A stretch of 64,000 nt of DNA from positions 32,001 through 96,000 of IMG/VR virus record IMGVR_UViG_3300032797_000632; one strand, written 5' to 3'. The stretch comes from a virus. This document shows positions 1,564 to 32,109 of the stretch, piece by piece (positions within the stretch are counted from its first letter, which is position 1; each line of letters begins with the position of its first letter). The position numbers and the translations under genes are program-made. The notes beneath the pieces were generated by a model. The model saw nothing but the letters and a program-made list of their open reading frames with translations, was not told the DNA's origin and made no database searches.

Positions 1564-4500
1564 ATGGCACTGATAATCAAGGCAAACAAATACGGGAATC
1601 CGAGACAACAGGCCGCATCCTCCCCCATCTCCGATAGGGAGATGGAGAGAAGGCGGGAGGCGATGCAGAAGTTCGCCCCGATGCTTAAGGGCCGGGGCAT
1701 GAACCCGATGCGGATCCGGGGGCAGATCCCCGGCACCATGACGATGGACCAGGCCGGGACGATCGGGACCCCGGGCACAGGCGGGCGGGGGCAGATGATA
1801 ACCTCCTCCCCAATCTACTACGATCCCCGGTTTTACACCCTTGACCGATTCTACTTTCCGCGGACGAGGGAGCAGGCTTACGCCATCTGGAAGATTTTCT
1901 ATGACCGTGACCCGGCGTGCGGGGTAGGGACGGACCTCTACTGTTGCCCCAAAGATGAAAAGATAATAGTCAATTCCGGGCTTTATGATGCAGGAAAAAT
2001 AAAGGCGGGCACGAGGATTGTCGCAAACGGCGGGTACGAGACCGTCCAGAAGACATTCGAAAGGGACTTCGACGGTGATCTTTTCAGAGTGGAGGGCGTT
2101 GGAATGATGCCCTTCAGGATAACCAAAAACCACTCCATACTTGCCGTGCACGGCGAGTGGGTTCGTAACACCGATCCAAACAAGAGCAGATGGCGATTGG
2201 AGTTGAAGGGAGAGTCCTTCACCCCCGTGCAGGATTTCAATCCCGAGAGCGATTTCCTTAAGGTTCCCAAGCTCAGACAATCGATAGGCGAGCACACCGT
2301 GGATCTTCTGTCCTTGATCCAGTCGGAGCATGTTGTTTCCATCAAGAGCATGGATGGCGAGGATTACATTTGCATTTATTGCGGGGGTGGATCGGCTACC
2401 AACCATTATGTGCGGAGGTTCATAAAATTCGATTCTAATGTGGCCGAGTTGCTCGGATGGCATGTGGCCGAGGGGCATGTGGACAAAAGAAGTCGCGGAG
2501 TACAGTACTCCTTCGGTTTGATGAATTTGCTACAGGCGGTTCGGGTCTGGCAACTATTCAACGATGTGTTTCGCTTCCGGGATAAATCCGGGATCCTTAA
2601 AAAACCGATCAGCCTTGTGCGACGGGGAGGCAGATACAGGGTGATGCTCTCCTCGAAGATAGTTAATAGATTTCTGCATGAGATGTGTGGTCCTCATGGT
2701 TCGGTAAAGAAGGTTCCGCAGCCAATAATGGAGGGTCCTCGGGATTGGGCATCGGCTTTTTTGATGGGATACCTTTGGGGCGATGGGCATTTGTTTGGCA
2801 AAGGCCATGATGTGCGGGCGGGAAGCATATCGATGGCACTCTCCTACCAGATACAGTTGTTGGCCACTAAATGCGACTGCTTTTTCAGGATGCACAGAAG
2901 GCCAGCGGGGAAATCGAGGAACCGGGATTTCTACTCGCTCGACTGCACAAAGAAGCAGGTGTATCCAAACATATTCGGATGGGATCCTCCCGGGGGCAAG
3001 AAGGTTGAGAATTACATCAGGGACATGGGGGATTATTTCCTCGTCCCGATATGGACAATAGAGAAAAGCCATTATTCAGGAAGGGTGTGCGGGTTCAAGA
3101 CGCCCAGCTCTACATACTGCGTTCCGGCGGTTCTTCACAATTCCGATCTCCCGTGGAGCGATTTCGACATCCTCGGAATCGACGACCCGAAGGTCAAGCA
3201 ATTCTACGAAGATATGTTCTCGGAGCTTAACCTGCCGTCCATCCTCCCGCAGATGACGAACGAGTATTTAAAAATGGGGGTGTGCGTCCCCCATCTGGTC
3301 CTTGACGGGCGCACCGGCTATTGGAGCACGGTGTTCGCCCACAACCCCAACTACATAAGAGTCACACCCATCCCCATCCCCGGGGCCGAGCCCATGCTCG
3401 ACCTTAAGCCCAGCCCGGAGCTGAGGGATTTTGCCGTGTCCCGGGACCCGCGGGTGATGACCATGAGGGCCCTGTTGCCCGATGTTTTCATCCAGAGGCT
3501 GATGGCCGGAATGCCCATCCCCCTAGACCCGATAAACGCCACCTATCTGGCCCGCAGAAGCTCCCCCTACGATCTCGAGGGGGTTTCGCTCTATAGCCGG
3601 GTCTACCGCATAAACATGATCGAGGACTTCCTGACCAATGCCACCATCGCCGTTACGCAGCGGAACGCCGCCCCGATACGGCTTTTCAAACTCGGGGACC
3701 GGGACACCGGATGGCTCCCGGAGAAGGAGGACGAGGAGGCGTTGGCCGAGATGCTGGCGGCCTGCGAGACCGACCCGATGGGCGCCATCATCTACCACTA
3801 TGGGATCGAGGTGGAGTATGTGGGGGTGAGCGACAAGGCTTACCTGCTGGGCCGGGACTGGGACATGATCGAGCGGATCAAGTTCTTGGCGATGGGCATA
3901 AATAAGAGCTTCCTGCTGGGCGAGACCTCGTTTGCGGCGGCGGTGGCTGGCCTGCAGACGATGGCCGAGAGGCTTCTGGCCCTGCGGGACAAGTTCGAAA
4001 CACTCTGGATATACCCCAAGGTCATCAGGAATGTCGCCAAGATGAACCAGATGTATCGGCGCAAGGCGTGCGAGCTTTCCCACCGGATCCGCACCACCGC
4101 CCATATTGATTCCAACCTCATAGTGCCCAAGATCAAGTGGCGCAAGACCCTCGAGCCCACGCAGGACACCTCGCTCCTCCGGGTCTGGCAGGAGATCAAG
4201 GATAAGGGGATATGCTCCGACAGGACCTTGGCCTCGGGGGCGGGGCTCGACATAGACACGGAGCGAAAAAACCTGATTGAGGAGGCCGAGTACCGCAGGA
4301 AATCGCTTAAAGACCACCCGGAACTTATGCCCCAGGAGGCGTCGCTGATCAGAAAGGCGTTGAAGCATAGGATGTCAAAAGACAAGGACAAGACCAATGG
4401 CCGGCACAGGTACCACGCCCCCTCGCACATCCTCGAATCCAAGATATGGGACCGGGAGGGCAAGTACGCCGGGATATCCTACCAAGACATCGAGCCCATC

Positions 4501-4818
4501 GTGGAGCTACTCAAAGACGGGACCACCTCCGATCCAGAATGGGAACGCATCAAGGCCGATTGGGGGCCGATAGGGGCGGAGCTTGACCGAAGGGGCTATA
4601 CCGAGGAGCAGATCGAGCGTGTGGCCGATATTCTGCGCGAGGAGGGCATACAATCCGGGGAGCACGAGATTCTGGACATGCTGGAAGGATTCGAGCAGAA
4701 AATAAGGGAGGAGTCGCAGAAACATGAGAGGGGTCTTTCGGGGAGCAAATTCCTAGCCGGGCACGATCCAGCTAGGATCAGACTTCCGGGGCAGGACAAG
4801 GGGGTTGATCGGCAGTGA
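1564..4818 (+). CDS. portal protein containing an intein
   Basis: Extein reads FYDRDPACGVGTDLY|SDLPWSDF, later GETSFAAAVAGLQ and IKWRKTL, resembling large-phage portals; lies upstream of protease and capsid genes. Confidence 0.75.
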   Translation: MALIIKANKYGNPRQQAASSPISDREMERRREAMQKFAPMLKGRGMNPMRIRGQIPGTMTMDQAGTIGTPGTGGRGQMITSSPIYYDPRFYTLDRFYFPRTREQAYAIWKIFYDRDPACGVGTDLYCCPKDEKIIVNSGLYDAGKIKAGTRIVANGGYETVQKTFERDFDGDLFRVEGVGMMPFRITKNHSILAVHGEWVRNTDPNKSRWRLELKGESFTPVQDFNPESDFLKVPKLRQSIGEHTVDLLSLIQSEHVVSIKSMDGEDYICIYCGGGSATNHYVRRFIKFDSNVAELLGWHVAEGHVDKRSRGVQYSFGLMNLLQAVRVWQLFNDVFRFRDKSGILKKPISLVRRGGRYRVMLSSKIVNRFLHEMCGPHGSVKKVPQPIMEGPRDWASAFLMGYLWGDGHLFGKGHDVRAGSISMALSYQIQLLATKCDCFFRMHRRPAGKSRNRDFYSLDCTKKQVYPNIFGWDPPGGKKVENYIRDMGDYFLVPIWTIEKSHYSGRVCGFKTPSSTYCVPAVLHNSDLPWSDFDILGIDDPKVKQFYEDMFSELNLPSILPQMTNEYLKMGVCVPHLVLDGRTGYWSTVFAHNPNYIRVTPIPIPGAEPMLDLKPSPELRDFAVSRDPRVMTMRALLPDVFIQRLMAGMPIPLDPINATYLARRSSPYDLEGVSLYSRVYRINMIEDFLTNATIAVTQRNAAPIRLFKLGDRDTGWLPEKEDEEALAEMLAACETDPMGAIIYHYGIEVEYVGVSDKAYLLGRDWDMIERIKFLAMGINKSFLLGETSFAAAVAGLQTMAERLLALRDKFETLWIYPKVIRNVAKMNQMYRRKACELSHRIRTTAHIDSNLIVPKIKWRKTLEPTQDTSLLRVWQEIKDKGICSDRTLASGAGLDIDTERKNLIEEAEYRRKSLKDHPELMPQEASLIRKALKHRMSKDKDKTNGRHRYHAPSHILESKIWDREGKYAGISYQDIEPIVELLKDGTTSDPEWERIKADWGPIGAELDRRGYTEEQIERVADILREEGIQSGEHEILDMLEGFEQKIREESQKHERGLSGSKFLAGHDPARIRLPGQDKGVDRQ
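1942..3141 (+). mobile_element. intein (400 aa) with LAGLIDADG homing endonuclease
   Basis: Starts at Cys (CCPKDEKI); block B ITKNH; LAGLIDADG motifs LLGWHVAEG and FLMGYLWGDG; ends VLHN followed by Ser+1. Confidence 0.92.
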
Positions 4819-4934: not shown

Positions 4935-5573
4935 ATGGACAGGCGGGCGAAGCTGGTCGAAAGCGACCTCCAGAAGATAAAGGACCTTTACCAGGACGCC
5001 ACAGGGGCCATAGAGGCGGTGTCTGCGGTCCGGAGGGATTTCATGCTGAGCCTCGGGTCGGATGGATATGCTTTGTCCGACGAGACTTGGGCGAGGGCAG
5101 ACGATGAGCAGAAGGCGTCCATCAGGGAGATGCAGTCGATCATTTCCGAGTCGGACGAGCTTCTCCTAAAGGCGAAGGATTCGTTGCAGTTGTTGTTATC
5201 GATCTTAAGCTATATGAAAGGGGGAAAATTTATGGCTTCGATTCGGGATTTAAGGATGGAGGCGGGGGCAAGGGCGGATCTGACGGACGAGGATGTGCGG
5301 TTGCTCGAAGGCGTGGCCGATCTCGCCCTGAATTTTCCGGGCGTAAGATCGGCGGTCCCGGATCTCGAGGAGATGGCGATGATGGCCGACGATTTCCTTA
5401 AGGCGACGCCCTCCGCCGCCACCATCGGGGGCGACGCCACGGTCCAGGCCAAACTCGAGGAGATGTTGAATGCATATGGGGAATTCATGGTGGCCGCAGA
5501 TGATGTGAAGACATATGCGAGAATAATCGGCAAAGCGGCGAAGTGGCTTTTGGCCGCCGGGGCTGGCAGGTAG
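4935..5573 (+). CDS. hypothetical helical protein, probably two fused modules
   Basis: AAGGAGG RBS; internal purine tract and ATG at 5232. Confidence 0.7.
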   Translation: MDRRAKLVESDLQKIKDLYQDATGAIEAVSAVRRDFMLSLGSDGYALSDETWARADDEQKASIREMQSIISESDELLLKAKDSLQLLLSILSYMKGGKFMASIRDLRMEAGARADLTDEDVRLLEGVADLALNFPGVRSAVPDLEEMAMMADDFLKATPSAATIGGDATVQAKLEEMLNAYGEFMVAADDVKTYARIIGKAAKWLLAAGAGR

Positions 5574-5586
5574 GGGGGGCGGGAGG

Positions 5587-5889
5587 ATGCCATACGGAAA
5601 TTTCGCCACATTCTCCGAGTCCCCGGAATATTGGGAGATGATCGTCGAGGCCATGCTGGACGCACAGGACCCGGCGGAGGCCGCTTCGGAAATAGCCAGT
5701 CTGATTAGAAATTACATAGACGAGGTAGTCCGAAGGGCCATGCCGAAGCTCATAAGGGATATAGTTGACGATGGGCTGATATCCCGGCAGGAAATGGATG
5801 AGAATTCCTCGATGCTACATGTGGACATGGTCGACAGCTATTGGGATGTCATCAAGACCGAGCTTGAGAAGATAAGGGCTCTTTTTTAG
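5587..5889 (+). CDS. hypothetical acidic protein
   Basis: Tightly packed ORF. Confidence 0.6.
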   Translation: MPYGNFATFSESPEYWEMIVEAMLDAQDPAEAASEIASLIRNYIDEVVRRAMPKLIRDIVDDGLISRQEMDENSSMLHVDMVDSYWDVIKTELEKIRALF

Positions 5890-12913: not shown

Positions 12914-13849
12914 ATGGTAAAAACATCGATAATCGGAATCGGCGGGGCGGGTGCCAACATCGTGGGATCCATTTGCGGGGCGTTCAAGGGGAAAAACCTC
13001 CCCGCCGAGTTTGCCGTCCTGAACACGGATGTGCAGGCACTCGGATCGATAGTCGAAAGGCATAAGCTGGATCCGGCGATATCCCACCAGATAGGCAAGC
13101 GGTCCACCAATGGCCTCGGGGCAGGAAGCATTCCCGAGATCGGGGCTGCCGCCGCCAAGGAGGATATTGCATTAATAAGAAGCCTAGTTCAGGGCCGGGA
13201 TCTCGTCATGGCCGTGGTCGGCATGGGAGGGGGGACCGGATCCGGGGCCTCCCCTATCCTCATGCACGAGGCCCGGGAGGCCGGAGCTCTGACCGTCTGC
13301 TGGATGGTAATGCCCTTCTCCTGCGAGGGGGCCAAGAGGGCCAAAATCGCCCGGGCGGCACAGAAGGAGGCCGAGGCAGAGTCGGACGCCCATGTGGTGG
13401 TGGCCAACGATGTGGTCGAGGACTTGGTTTTCAAGGATGCGATGGCGAATATCAACTCGACCATTGGCCGGGGGATCGAGGTCATGATCCAGGTGCTACT
13501 TGACCCTAGCCTGATCAACTTGGACTTCGCTGACTTCCGGACTGTGCTCAAGGCCGGGGGCCGGGCACTATTCTCCTTCGCCGGATACGATGGGGAGAGG
13601 CGGGCCGGCAAGGTGTCGGACGATCTGCTGAAATTCTCCCTCCAGCCGGCCACAAACACCAAGCGAATCAGGCAGTGCATAATATTCATCCGCGGGGGAT
13701 CCGACATGAGGCGGGACGAGATCGAGGGCGTATCCACCGCAGTGCAGAAAAAACTGGATGAGGACGCCCTGATGCTCATGGGCGTATCGGTGGGAGCGGA
13801 AAAGGGCCCGCTCGAGGCCGTGTTCTTCGGGACGATGGCGGAGAAATAA
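12914..13849 (+). CDS. ftsZ: FtsZ-family GTPase lacking the C-terminal tail
   Basis: GIGGAGAN, NTD, GLGAG, GGGTGSG signature, PFSCEG, T7 loop NLDFADF. Confidence 0.93.
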   Translation: MVKTSIIGIGGAGANIVGSICGAFKGKNLPAEFAVLNTDVQALGSIVERHKLDPAISHQIGKRSTNGLGAGSIPEIGAAAAKEDIALIRSLVQGRDLVMAVVGMGGGTGSGASPILMHEAREAGALTVCWMVMPFSCEGAKRAKIARAAQKEAEAESDAHVVVANDVVEDLVFKDAMANINSTIGRGIEVMIQVLLDPSLINLDFADFRTVLKAGGRALFSFAGYDGERRAGKVSDDLLKFSLQPATNTKRIRQCIIFIRGGSDMRRDEIEGVSTAVQKKLDEDALMLMGVSVGAEKGPLEAVFFGTMAEK

Positions 13850-17298: not shown

Positions 17299-17676
17299 AT
17301 GCCCGGCAAAAGACGCCTCGATCTTGGGAGCAGGACATTCGAATCCAGCAGTGTTTTCGACGAGGAGGCCGACGGCCCGATCCCGAGGAAGGAGCAGATG
17401 GCCGAGTGGGTGAAGTATATCATCGAAGAGCAGGCGGACCTGGAGGGAAGCTTGCCTGATGATTGGACGGATTGGGATGTGGAGATATCCGGCGAGGTGG
17501 CCGGCAAGGAGGACGACCCGGACATGGACTGGTCTTGTGAGGCCGAGTTTGAGCTGACCGATCCGGACGGGCATCCCGCCGTGTGGGGCACCATCTGGGT
17601 GCAGGGCCACCACCCCGACCCGAGGAAGATCGATTCGATTGTGGTGCACGAGGTGGGCATATCCGCGGAGGTCTGA
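17299..17676 (+). CDS. hypothetical acidic protein
   Basis: GGAGGAG RBS. Confidence 0.65.
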   Translation: MPGKRRLDLGSRTFESSSVFDEEADGPIPRKEQMAEWVKYIIEEQADLEGSLPDDWTDWDVEISGEVAGKEDDPDMDWSCEAEFELTDPDGHPAVWGTIWVQGHHPDPRKIDSIVVHEVGISAEV

Positions 17677-17677
17677 C

Positions 17678-18436
17678 ATGGAGCGAGAGGCATACATCAG
17701 CAAGGAAAAAGGCAAGTGGTGAGTTCGTAGCGAGAAAAACCCCTCCTGGTCAGGAGGCTGCTACGACACCAAGCCAGAGGCCGAGGACAGGTTGGCACAG
17801 GTAGAAAGGATCAAGCACATGAAAGGCGGTGCCATGAACAAGGAAGGCGGGTTGCCGAAAACGGAAGAGGAGCTGAAGAATTATTATTGCCCGGAGTGCG
17901 GGCAGAACCCCGACAACCCGGAGCAGATCGTCTACGAGCCGAACCCGCATTATTTCTCCCCCTATGTTTGCACCGACTGCGGAAAGAGCGTGATCCCCGT
18001 CAGCAAGGACACGGGGAAGCAAATAAGCATTGAGGAATGGAAAAAGGAGCGCGAACTCCTGAAAGGAGGATCGATGGGAAAAGGCGTGATATCTGACGGC
18101 ATCAAAAAGATCGAGGACATCTTGGCCGCCAAGGAGGAGCCCGAGGAGAAGGCGGAGGGCGGGGAGGCTGAGGGTGGCGAGGAAGAGGAGCTTGTCCTCG
18201 AAACCGAGGAGGATGTGGCGGAGCTCTACGAGGAGGCCAAGGAAAAGGCCATTGAGCTTCTCGACGCCGTCATCGAGGCCACCATCGAGGAGGAGGGAAA
18301 TCCTCCCAAGTGGGTCAAGAACCCGGCGATCTGGGAGAAGGCCAAGGAGGCGGTGGAGCCGTACAGGGATAAGTATGATGAGCCCTACGCTGTTATCTCT
18401 TGGCTCTACCAAAGGCTCGGCGGAAAAATTAAGTAA
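17678..18436 (+). CDS. candidate selenoprotein (TGA at codon 15), multi-module with Zn ribbon
   Basis: GGAGG then ATG 17678; reads MEREAYISKEKGKW-U-VRSEKNPSWSGGCYDTKPEAEDRLAQVERIKH in frame with ORF 17792..18436; CPEC..CTDC. Confidence 0.8.
17723..17767 (+). promoter_or_regulatory. bacterial SECIS-like hairpin 1
   Basis: Lower stem CGUAGC/GCUACG, upper stem CCUCCU/AGGAGG, GGUC loop 25 nt after the UGA at 17720-17722. Confidence 0.75.
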
Positions 18437-19624: not shown

Positions 19625-20749
19625 GTTAGGCAATGAATAGATTTCCATTACATTACCCTTTGAATGCTCGGGGACTCCAGGCTCCCGAGGGTCGGCAGGG
19701 TGCGGGCGAGGATGTTCCGCGCTCCGACGGTGTCGGCGTCGTTTGCGTGGCCGCAGGCGACGCACAGAAAGTCCTCTCCCCTGCGATTCAGCATGTCAGT
19801 CGTGCCACAGACGGGGCATTGCCGGGAGGTGTTGGCCGGATCCACGGCCACGGGCAGAACACGGTTCTCCCGGGCTTTGAGCTCGATCCGGTTGAGCACC
19901 CGCCGGTAAACCCACGGCGACATGGCCTTGCGAAATGCTTTATTTCTGTTCGGCTTCTTTCCGGTCTTGAGATGCTTGAGCTTCTCGATGCCTACGGCCC
20001 GGAGCTCGGGCCACGGGAGCTGGTTGACGGTGCGGTTGATGAGGTTGTCCCGCTCCCGGTGGGCCCGGAGTCGGCCCTTGGATCCTGGCCGGCGCCGGCG
20101 GACTCGATCCCTGATGCACTTGAAGTCGGTGCCGTAGTGGTGGCCATCGGAGTCGGAGATCAGCTTATTGACGCCGAGGTCGAGGCCGAGGATCCGGCCC
20201 TCGGTCTTGGGGGCTTGGTCGGGGATGTCGACCCAGAGGATCATCGAGTCTTCGGAGAGAGAGCATCCCTGAATGATCCTCGCCCCGGGCTGGGCCAGCC
20301 ACTTGTTGAGCACGGCGGTTTTCCGGGTGGGGATGGTGATCCGATGGCCTTGATTCAAAACCGAGAGTTTGATGATCAGATCAAAGGACTCCTCGCCCTC
20401 CTCGACGGCGACGAACTTGGCGTCGAGGGTGGCGTTGCCGTCGAACACCGGGCGGGAGGGGGGTTTGCCGAGTTCCCGGGCGGACCGTTGGGTGGCGATG
20501 ACGATTTCGATGGCTTGCTTGAGTGCGGTGCTTTTGTACCGAGCGGAGAGGCGGGAGTGCTCGAGGATTTGGTATGGGGGGATTCCGGGTTCGTCCCACA
20601 AGTTTTTGATGTAGAAGTTGACGGCGACCCGGTAGGATTCGAGGAGTGCATTAATGGCCCGTCGTTTCCGGGCGGTAGCGAATTTGAGGGTGATTTTGCA
20701 GGCCCGCTTCATCGATGGTAATGGTTGATCATGAAAGATATATAGTCAA
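19625..20749 (-). mobile_element. non-autonomous tnpB-only element 1
   Basis: Flank similarity with copy 3 ends at GTTAGG (3' side) and at a TTGAC 37 nt before the ATG; no tnpA. Confidence 0.6.
19648..20712 (-). CDS. tnpB: TnpB RNA-guided nuclease (copy 1)
   Basis: RuvC GLDLG, GIEKL, DADTVGARNI; Zn finger CPVC/CVAC. Confidence 0.9.
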   Translation of the reverse strand: MKRACKITLKFATARKRRAINALLESYRVAVNFYIKNLWDEPGIPPYQILEHSRLSARYKSTALKQAIEIVIATQRSARELGKPPSRPVFDGNATLDAKFVAVEEGEESFDLIIKLSVLNQGHRITIPTRKTAVLNKWLAQPGARIIQGCSLSEDSMILWVDIPDQAPKTEGRILGLDLGVNKLISDSDGHHYGTDFKCIRDRVRRRRPGSKGRLRAHRERDNLINRTVNQLPWPELRAVGIEKLKHLKTGKKPNRNKAFRKAMSPWVYRRVLNRIELKARENRVLPVAVDPANTSRQCPVCGTTDMLNRRGEDFLCVACGHANDADTVGARNILARTLPTLGSLESPSIQRVM

Positions 20750-21022: not shown

Positions 21023-21868
21023 ATGCACTTCATCACGGCCAATGCGAAGGTCACGGCGGCGGGAGTAATGGGCGGGGCCCCGGGGAAGGACATTCTCCGG
21101 AGGTTCGGAGCGAGGAAGGAGCTACTCGATCCGCAGATCTTCTCCGCCGTGGCGGAGAGGTACCGGATATCTAGGAACCCCCAGGACTATGTCTACACCA
21201 TTGCCCGGGCGGTGTCGACGGATGTCCCCAACCACAACGGGGACGCATTCCCCGAGGAGGAGCTGCTGAGCCTGAACCCGCACGCTGGGGTCATGGTCTA
21301 CCAGACCTTCATCAACGACCCTCTGCACATCGAGCATCTGAGCGACGATCCGACCACCGCCCTCGGGTTCATCCTCGACTCCCACTACAACACCGAGGCC
21401 CAGCACGACAAGTTCGTCGAGACCCTTGTGCTGGTGGACAAAAAGAAAAACGTCGCCCTGGCGTCGGAGATCGCCTCCGGGCGGAGGGATTCCTTCTCCA
21501 TGGGGTGCCTCTGCGAGATCGAGGTGTGCTCCTACTGCAATAAGGCGTCGAGGTCGGACGACGAGTTCTGCGACCACATGATGCACATGCGGATGCAGAG
21601 AATCGCCGGCCAGCTGGTCTACGGGAAATGCTACGGGGTCACATTCACCGAGCTATCATCGGTGGCCCAGCCGGCGGACGCCAAGGCCCGACAGAGGTTC
21701 CTGCTGGCGGCCTCGAGCCGGCGGAAGGCCGAGTCAGTACCCCTCATAGCGAGGATCGGGTTCTCCGGGGACAAGGCCCGGGAGGTTGCCCGCTATCTCG
21801 AGGCCCGCATGGGGGAGTTGCCCCCGGCGATGGTCGAGTTGGGCGAGAAGCTTTTCGGGGAGGTTTGA
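21023..21868 (+). CDS. prohead (capsid maturation) protease
   Basis: NHNGDAF, HIEH, FSMGC, Zn insert CSYC..CDH, ELSSVAQPAD. Confidence 0.85.
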   Translation: MHFITANAKVTAAGVMGGAPGKDILRRFGARKELLDPQIFSAVAERYRISRNPQDYVYTIARAVSTDVPNHNGDAFPEEELLSLNPHAGVMVYQTFINDPLHIEHLSDDPTTALGFILDSHYNTEAQHDKFVETLVLVDKKKNVALASEIASGRRDSFSMGCLCEIEVCSYCNKASRSDDEFCDHMMHMRMQRIAGQLVYGKCYGVTFTELSSVAQPADAKARQRFLLAASSRRKAESVPLIARIGFSGDKAREVARYLEARMGELPPAMVELGEKLFGEV

Positions 21869-30912: not shown

Positions 30913-32109
30913 TTGACACTCTCCCGATCAAGATGCCGGGGGATTCTCGGGACTTGTGGTGCAAGGGTACCGAAGGGCCTGCCCGGCCCTTAAAATGTTA
31001 AGGGATGCGTTGAGATCACGATGGATGGTGAGACCACAGTGAGGACAGCGATGGATGCGGATGCTCAGGTCTTTGGGCACGAGGATTCCGCACCGGGAGC
31101 ACACCTGCGAGGTGTTCTTGGCCGGGACTTCGACGATCTGGCGGGCAACAGCTTCTTCCGCTTTTTGCCTGAGAATCGTGAAGAACCCGAACCACGCCAC
31201 ATCCCTCATGGATTTGTTAAGCGATCTCCAACTATTCCAAGATTTCATTTGTTCGATATAAATAATGTCATAGCTTTTGAGCAGACTGTTGGCAGTCTTA
31301 AAATGGAAGTCCCGACGCTGATTAGCGATCTTGGCGTGGGTACGGGCGACAAGAATTTGGGCCTTGTGCCTACGGCCAGAACCCTTCTGCCTCCCATCTT
31401 TCCGACGCTGGCGCATAGCAAGCTGGCTCTCGGATTGTTTGAAGAATCTGGGGTTGTCGACGATCTTTCCGTCGCTGGAGGTAAAGAACGATTCGCATCC
31501 CACATCGATGCTGGCCTCCCTGCCCGTTGGTGGCATGGGTCGGGTAGGAACATCATCGCAGGAAAAGGAAACAAACCATTGGCCAGCAGAGGTTCGGCGG
31601 ATAGTTACGGTCTTTATTTTTCCTTCGATGGGGCGGGAGAGGCGGATTGTGAATCGGCCTACCTTCTTGATAATCAGATGTTTGCCGTTGAGCTTCCATC
31701 CTGCCTGTTCGAGGGTAAAGGAATCGTAGCGATCCCGGCCCCTAAACCGAGGCAATCCTGGCCTATTGTCTCCCAGTTTCCATTGCTTTATTCTTCGAAA
31801 GAAACCTTTGTAGGACGAATCCAATCGTTCAAGGACATCTTGGAGAACTTGCGAACCGACCTTACTGAACTCGGGGAATTCTGCCTTCAGAGCAGGAAGT
31901 TCTTTCATCTGGGCATATTTATTGATGGATATTCGGTTTTGCCTGTAGGCGGAGATCCGTTGCTCGAGAGCAGTGTTATACAATCGACGGCAAAGCTCAA
32001 GCCACTGTTCGGCTCGCCGAATAGTTTGAGAATTGCCCTTAATAGAATATCGGAAGGACTTTTTCATGATCCTTGCACCAATCCAAAATTCGCATATTAC
32101 CTAAGGAAA
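30913..32109 (-). mobile_element. IS1341-like tnpB-only element
   Basis: Right end GGGAGAGTGTCAA on - strand ends at 30913; TTGAT (TAM-like) on - strand at 32114-32110. Confidence 0.65.
30928..32067 (-). CDS. tnpB: IS200/IS605 TnpB (copy 2, distinct lineage)
   Basis: CRRLYN, SQVLQ, PRFR, RuvC SIDVG, IEQM, HRDLNASLNI; CSRC/CPHC. Confidence 0.93.
   Translation of the reverse strand: MKKSFRYSIKGNSQTIRRAEQWLELCRRLYNTALEQRISAYRQNRISINKYAQMKELPALKAEFPEFSKVGSQVLQDVLERLDSSYKGFFRRIKQWKLGDNRPGLPRFRGRDRYDSFTLEQAGWKLNGKHLIIKKVGRFTIRLSRPIEGKIKTVTIRRTSAGQWFVSFSCDDVPTRPMPPTGREASIDVGCESFFTSSDGKIVDNPRFFKQSESQLAMRQRRKDGRQKGSGRRHKAQILVARTHAKIANQRRDFHFKTANSLLKSYDIIYIEQMKSWNSWRSLNKSMRDVAWFGFFTILRQKAEEAVARQIVEVPAKNTSQVCSRCGILVPKDLSIRIHRCPHCGLTIHRDLNASLNILRAGQALRYPCTTSPENPPAS

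Follow-up and report, generated by a model that had tools for sequence, protein, structure and literature searches.

A candidate selenocysteine codon followed by a SECIS-like hairpin in a head-region gene of an uncultured phage

The gene at positions 17678-18436 of the viral DNA studied here carries an in-frame TGA at its fifteenth codon, and the question that this locus raises is whether the triplet ends a peptide of 14 residues or is read as selenocysteine (Sec) within a protein of 252 residues. The window, by which we mean the whole 64,000-nucleotide stretch that was analysed, corresponds to bases 32001-96000 of a linear IMG/VR virus record of 126,141 bases estimated to be 64% complete. The reading frame, its relatives, the RNA structure that follows the TGA and another gene of this phage were examined together. 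The selenocysteine interpretation put forward in the original prediction is supported by this analysis, and we estimate at about 0.78 the probability that the gene is a selenoprotein gene in which Sec would be incorporated at UGA 17720 via the host SelB.

Inspection of the plus strand confirms the gene start that had been proposed, as well as the position of the TGA in frame with the downstream ORF. A Shine-Dalgarno motif GGAGG (17667-17671) lies 6 nt ahead of the ATG at 17678-17680, and the gene upstream ends with its own TGA stop at 17674-17676, one base before this ATG. From there, a frame of 252 codons plus TAA extends over 17678-18436 and is interrupted only by the TGA at 17720-17722 (codon 15), the candidate Sec codon; beyond it, the frame runs uninterrupted as far as the TAA at 18434-18436. 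The read-through product would begin with the N-terminal module, about 49 residues long, continue with a Cys4 zinc ribbon and an acidic linker, and close with a conserved C-terminal domain. The zinc ribbon (Cys71, Cys74, Cys98 and Cys101, 17888-17980) is assigned from the sequence and from weak Pfam zinc-ribbon matches, all of which fall below the cut-off. Homologues P0003, P0004, P0005 and P0006 align along the 252-residue frame, and the C-terminal domain is common to P0003, P0004 and P0006. The UGA is found in frame within an otherwise open and conserved coding frame. Furthermore, every family-invariant residue of the module downstream of the TGA has been retained, and the module is therefore translated now or was until very recently. 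Two internal start codons have to be considered as well. The TTG at 17792 was originally described as having no adjacent ribosome-binding site, a description that has to be tempered: a Shine-Dalgarno-like GAGGA is present at 17783-17787, 4 nt upstream. This TTG is nonetheless not a conserved start, because it is CTG in a related contig. An AAAGGA sits 8 nt ahead of the ATG at 17819.

The N-terminal module (residues 1-49, 17678-17824) belongs to a family of its own. The original prediction had invoked a small phage module with a Cys where the TGA falls, and such a module does exist: it is encoded by the 80 metagenome loci that were retained out of 124 found and by one IMG/VR locus, giving 81 related loci. 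All 81 were inspected and 61 were aligned, the 20 omitted being duplicates or near-duplicates by eye. The codon occupied by TGA in the phage corresponds to a Cys in 42 of the 61 aligned loci, where it follows an aromatic residue as the proposed KW context would have it, and none of the 81 loci has TGA at codon 15. The fate of this Cys is strictly tied to that of the residue 13 positions further on, Cys28 (TGC, 17759-17761), which had been suggested as its partner. Indeed, both positions are Cys in 42 aligned loci, neither is in the remaining 19, and not a single locus has only one of the two. The same holds throughout the 81 loci: wherever codon 15 encodes something other than Cys, Cys28 has been lost as well. 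Both Cys are retained in variants whose hairpin loop is shorter by two residues.

A structural model of the module gives this co-variation a geometric context. The AlphaFold model, computed with 62 sequences (pLDDT 80.5), displays a beta-beta-beta-alpha arrangement with strands at residues 5-10, 13-18 and 25-29 and a helix at 32-49. The structure check that had been recommended places residues 15 and 28 on the neighbouring antiparallel strands 13-18 and 25-29, a modelled arrangement which fits the idea that they would be cross-strand partners. The simplest reading of the co-variation, as far as the alignment goes, is a disulfide or redox pair, in which case Sec15 would give a selenenyl-sulfide. 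The phage protein thus probably forms a selenenyl-sulfide instead of a disulfide, since positions 15 and 28 are a co-varying Cys pair in most relatives.

Even with E values of up to 1 admitted, no Pfam or PHROG profile matches residues 1-50, no relative carrying the protein occurs among the cultured phages of the INPHARED set, and the PDB holds no significant relative of the module by sequence or by fold. A search with residues 1-48 of P0005 returned three proteins only. At the level of predicted folds, BFVD yielded two proteins named XkdF, of the PBSX prohead-protease type, from uncultured tailed phages (E 2e-4 and 8e-4, TMq 0.74 and 0.71), as well as a weak likeness to a DUF2188 protein; the module has no profile match above the cut-off to Pfam DUF2188 or another curated family, and the PDB and BFVD fold searches do not identify it as a known redox fold. 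Some copies stand alone, as proteins of about 60-80 residues; others are found at either end of a different protein or within proteins of 700-1700 residues, one of which (locus L077) starts with a Peptidase_S77 prohead protease domain. In loci L002-L081, the module nearly always finishes in V-E-x-F-K-H-M-K; proteins often end a few residues past this motif, and in the large proteins the chain runs on. A domain boundary or a site of processing could lie here.

The gene is located between a PhuZ-like tubulin gene (12914-13849) and a head maturation protease gene (21023-21868), the latter 2.6 kb downstream. Describing the gene and its module as head-associated, as was done at the outset, is reasonable because the gene lies between these two. 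The tubulin itself matches phrog_4733 with an E value of 4e-5 and suggests a jumbo-type phage.

Is the TGA real, and is it kept in relatives? The window is represented in small shares in two landfill-metagenome DNA runs, and no RNA run holding it is listed among the sequencing runs. An independent witness is a 7840-nt contig from a landfill metagenome of another data set (X1, record 1), which aligns without gaps over 17689-17902 and shows 7 differences. This 214-nt segment is 97% identical to the window and includes the TGA and the hairpin as well as the beginning of the zinc ribbon; both flanks are unlike the window at an 80% threshold, and either the segment was exchanged recently or its nucleotide sequence is under unusual constraint. 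Apart from its end, the contig has three listed differences, 17792 T>C, 17839 C>T and 17848 C>T. All are synonymous in the frame, and the one at 17792 turns the TTG start of the ORF caller into CTG; no difference is listed at 17720-17722. An assembly error, which had been named as a circumstance that would overturn the proposal, is unlikely given that this contig covers the TGA without a listed difference. A further contig (X2) ends 8 nt short of the TGA.

More distant relatives are known through their gene calls. P0004 and its JGI twin P0011, encoded on contigs of about 7.1-7.3 kb, and P0005 all start exactly at codon 16, with a Val at this codon in P0011 that corresponds to a GTG start, and they share about 83% identity with the remaining module while keeping all the family-invariant residues. 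Judging by the sequences, starts at codon 16 are the behaviour expected of a gene caller confronted with a stop at codon 15. Conservation of the UGA among orthologues can accordingly be described as one 97%-identical contig without a listed change at the TGA, together with diverged relatives whose gene calls begin at codon 16. Other calls open further downstream, P0002 from ATG 17819 and P0024 from TTG 17792. A degenerate DNA pattern of the TGA-bearing module returned no match in the IMG/VR viral contigs or the GTDB genome contigs. The TGA form of the module is rare, given this result and the lack of TGA at codon 15 throughout the 81 loci.

The RNA immediately downstream of the TGA can adopt a SECIS-like structure (17717-17771). 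Its lower helix pairs 17717-17721 with 17767-17771 and takes in the U and the G of the UGA, the middle helix pairs 17725-17731 with 17760-17766, and the apical helix pairs 17742-17747 with 17752-17757 around a GGUC loop (17748-17751) that starts 28 nt after the U of the UGA. The two perfect 6-bp stems announced in the original prediction are both correct, namely CGUAGC (17726-17731) with GCUACG (17760-17765), contained in the middle helix, and CCUCCU with AGGAGG, which form the apical one. The 61-nt RNA 17715-17775 has a minimum free energy (MFE) of -23.8 kcal/mol (z = -3.5), and none of 200 shuffled sequences is equally stable. In bacteria, the SECIS consensus calls for a stem-loop immediately downstream of the UGA whose apical loop opens with G(U), within about 16-37 nt, and the phage hairpin, with its loop start at 28 nt, agrees with this arrangement.

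To what extent does the hairpin set this gene apart from its homologues? We used a shape criterion that calls for a perfect stem of at least 6 bp containing no more than one G-U pair, a loop of 4-8 nt whose first four bases include GU, and a loop start 15-36 nt past the first base of the codon. By this criterion, which was modelled on the bacterial consensus and fixed only after the hairpin had been seen, the gene's hairpin passes, none of 70 distinct homologue loci passes from the same codon (3 of 70 do so when 5 bp are allowed), and 45 of the 3152 TGA triplets of the 126-kb record pass (1.4%). Free energy does not support uniqueness: by plain MFE of the 54 nt from codon 15, this gene ranks just 5th of 71, so that the shape criterion alone separates the hairpin from the homologues. 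The codons of the P-[DS]-W-S-G-G stretch are partly self-complementary. Neither the hairpin at 17720 nor the one in the second gene described below matches an Rfam SECIS family by covariance model, be it at the gathering score or at E up to 10. According to passages of two reports (PMC12013277; bioRxiv 10.64898/2026.09.15.751765), the SECIS elements of bacteria vary widely and models capture them poorly.

Across the whole record, there are 10 hairpins with a stem of at least 6 bp and a loop of 4-7 nt starting with GGUC, and 3 of these have a TGA 24-28 nt ahead with long open frames on either side (P = 4.7e-4). This association weakens to P = 0.14 (at least 1 of 9), no longer significant by itself, once the finding itself and an antisense case at 31040 are removed. 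The latter TGA, which precedes a GGUCUU-loop hairpin, was considered as a third Sec candidate, yet it falls on the antisense strand of a TnpB gene (30928-32067, minus strand) and was attributed to chance. Two other combinations of a TGA with a hairpin, at window positions 5105 and 14942, have the TGA off-frame within real ORFs and were likewise taken as chance.

The remaining case is a second candidate selenoprotein gene of 161 codons on the plus strand (42045-42530), which shows the same signature. From ATG 42045, 95 codons lead up to a TGA at 42330-42332 (codon 96) and 65 more to a TAG at 42528-42530, filling the gap before the next gene. The TGA is followed by a 7-bp hairpin in which CCUCUAC (42347-42353) pairs with GUGGAGG (42360-42366) around a GGUCAG loop (42354-42359) that starts 24 nt after the U of the UGA. 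A HMMER search of 1.84 billion representatives retrieved three full-length homologues, P0013 (46% identity), P0016 (28%) and P0017 (22%), and all three have a Cys opposite TGA 42330 in a locally conserved motif. Closer relatives are split exactly at codon 96: the first half corresponds to P0008 and P0009, both of 95 residues and the latter 67% identical to the phage sequence, and the second half to P0014 (52 residues), P0015 and P0020 (53 residues each). No relative of this gene was retrieved from IMG/VR. A Logan contig of 19,190 nt is recorded for both P0009 and P0014, and one of 105,688 nt for P0020. One diverged relative phage appears to keep both interruptions, because the contig of P0005 is also 105,688 nt long, the equal size being the only link between the two records. 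In this second family, four Cys positions are conserved (5, 17, 96 and 152), a pattern suggestive of two disulfides or of a metal site. That two random nonsense mutations would each have fallen on a conserved Cys followed by a GGUC-loop hairpin, and would have persisted in diverged genomes, is very unlikely, and it is because the second gene shows the same signature that our estimate for the gene at 17678 was raised from about 0.6 to about 0.8.

The genome as a whole uses TGA as an ordinary stop. It closes 52 of 135 crude ORFs and is the commonest stop in this set, it terminates the gene immediately upstream, 44 nt ahead of TGA 17720, and long ORFs split by TGA are no commoner than those split by the other stops, at a GC content of 57.7%. 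Reassignment of TGA as in NCBI tables 4 and 25 was rejected on the basis of the upstream TGA stop, the 52 of 135 ORFs and the lack of any excess of TGA-split ORFs. No tRNA-Sec, selA, selB or selD was found in the 126-kb record, estimated to be 64% complete. Its three tRNAs, located outside the window at record positions 5553-5629 (Arg-CCT), 105160-105232 (Met-CAT) and 116609-116684 (Thr-CGT), include neither a suppressor nor a tRNA-Sec. Two TnpB-like genes (IS200/IS605 OrfB type, by the look of their sequences) lie on the minus strand at 19648-20712 and 30928-32067, among plus-strand phage genes. They gave no pointer to the host, as the first has no close relatives and the second has scattered matches of at most 59% identity in unrelated bacterial and archaeal MAGs. 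Elsewhere in the window, the ORF at 1564-4818 encodes 1084 residues, of which 395-452 form a LAGLIDADG_3 domain, and the gene may contain an intein.

The explanation that we propose is the following. Translation would begin at ATG 17678, and the mRNA hairpin just past UGA 17720, with its apical helix at 17742-17757 and its GGUC loop, would recruit the host SelB carrying Sec-tRNA(Sec). With the ribosome standing at the UGA, SelB would bind the apical helix together with its loop, such that Sec15 would be inserted and termination avoided. In the resulting 252-residue product, Sec15 would be situated in the beta-beta-beta-alpha module opposite Cys28 on the adjacent strand, and a Se-S bond would join the two across the module's beta-hairpin, a selenenyl-sulfide replacing the disulfide. 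The phage, whose record contains no Sec machinery of its own, would rely on a Sec-competent host, and failed insertion would leave a 14-residue peptide, possibly followed by re-initiation at ATG 17819. The dependence on SelB, the actual insertion of Sec, the Se-S bond and its role are what we infer from the features described above. Selenenyl-sulfides are harder to reduce than disulfides, and one may speculate that a hard-to-reduce bond would suit a phage of an anoxic habitat. A broader scenario, which we offer as a tentative idea and consider rather doubtful, is that a clade of large phages, seen to date in metagenomes of landfill type, uses Sec, via the host SelB, in at least two virion-module proteins, where it would replace one Cys of a conserved set and keep a selenenyl-sulfide closed under more reducing conditions, as a structural staple and not a catalytic centre.

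Other explanations must be weighed against Sec insertion. The TGA may be a true stop created by a nonsense mutation, the module being dispensable; a 14-residue peptide would then be made and the working protein would start from ATG 17819 or TTG 17792. A single base change is enough to convert a Cys codon to TGA, the TGA form is rare, and the module is modular and missing from many architectures. Moreover, both internal starts are preceded by a motif, AAAGGA and GAGGA, and were chosen as the beginning of P0002 and P0024, respectively. We nevertheless regard this explanation as unlikely, because a random mutation would have had to strike a conserved, paired Cys in two genes of one phage, and because both interruptions seem to persist at 63-83% identity with the invariant residues kept after the stop. 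The absence of the hairpin from all 70 homologue loci, of Cys type or other, and the replacement of TTG 17792 by CTG in a relative also argue against it.

Read-through of the UGA could also take place without Sec, by means of a near-cognate Trp or Cys tRNA, at a low level, or of a suppressor encoded in the missing third of the genome, with the hairpin doing no more than causing a pause or stimulating the read-through. Among bacterial stops UGA is the leakiest, and the lack of Sec machinery in a record of which only an estimated 64% is at hand leaves room for this mechanism. We find it improbable all the same, considering that the known tRNAs (Arg-CCT, Met and Thr-CGT) include no suppressor and that TGA ends many genes, the immediate upstream neighbour among them. 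Furthermore, both interrupted codons align with Cys, not with Trp or variable positions, and both are followed at 24-28 nt by an apical loop starting with GGUC, the arrangement of bacterial SECIS elements. Finally, an error of assembly or sequencing, or a genome-wide reassignment of TGA (code 4 or 25), might be invoked for a single metagenome-assembled record in which the TGA is one base away from a Cys codon. This is highly improbable in view of the independent contig of another data set, which has no listed difference at the site, and of the gene calls of other assemblies that begin at codon 16, to which are added, as regards reassignment, the GC content, the absence of an excess of TGA-split long ORFs and the rank of TGA as the commonest crude-ORF stop.

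Selenocysteine insertion, our preferred reading, would extend the range of Sec decoding, which is known for cells and for two poxvirus genes acquired from the host. In the passages of the literature retrieved by our search, no natural phage selenoprotein was found (PMC9402790, PMC13326102, PMC12013277, bioRxiv 10.64898/2026.09.15.751765). That a phage practises Sec recoding of the bacterial type in its own head-region protein family is what we consider likely here. If this is true, bacterial viruses exploit Sec recoding with a UGA and a SECIS in two structural-region genes of their own, the host range of such phages is tied to Sec-competent hosts and to selenium supply, and gene callers systematically split genes of this kind, as P0002, P0024, P0008 and P0014 would illustrate. 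In addition, a natural Sec/Cys switch within a perfectly co-varying cross-strand pair would offer a simple system for comparing selenium with sulfur outside active sites.

Comparison with known systems situates the candidate. Its module family is shared with the XkdF-type (PBSX) and Peptidase_S77 fusion proteins of uncultured tailed phages, in which the module is found alone, terminal or internal; among the module copies read, only that of this phage has a TGA replacing the first Cys. With bacterial selenoprotein genes of the fdhF type, it shares an in-frame UGA where homologues have Cys, a stem-loop in the coding sequence at once 3' of the UGA, which stands at the foot of the structure, and an apical loop that opens with GGU(C) at a distance of 28 nt from the U, or 24 nt in the second gene. 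Unlike these genes, it is borne by a phage, selA, selB, selC and selD being absent from the 64% of the genome at hand, it encodes a head-region protein that is not a known redox enzyme, and it has no Rfam SECIS match. The viral selenoproteins named in passages of PMC8310308 are the poxvirus glutathione peroxidases of molluscum contagiosum virus and fowlpox virus. They have in common with the phage candidate a virus-encoded UGA decoded as Sec by the host machinery, and the fowlpox enzyme further resembles it in having its SECIS within the coding region. However, the poxvirus genes are captured cellular genes of eukaryotic viruses that depend on the eukaryotic SECIS/SBP2 system, whereas the phage candidate belongs to a phage-specific protein family and carries a hairpin of the bacterial type.
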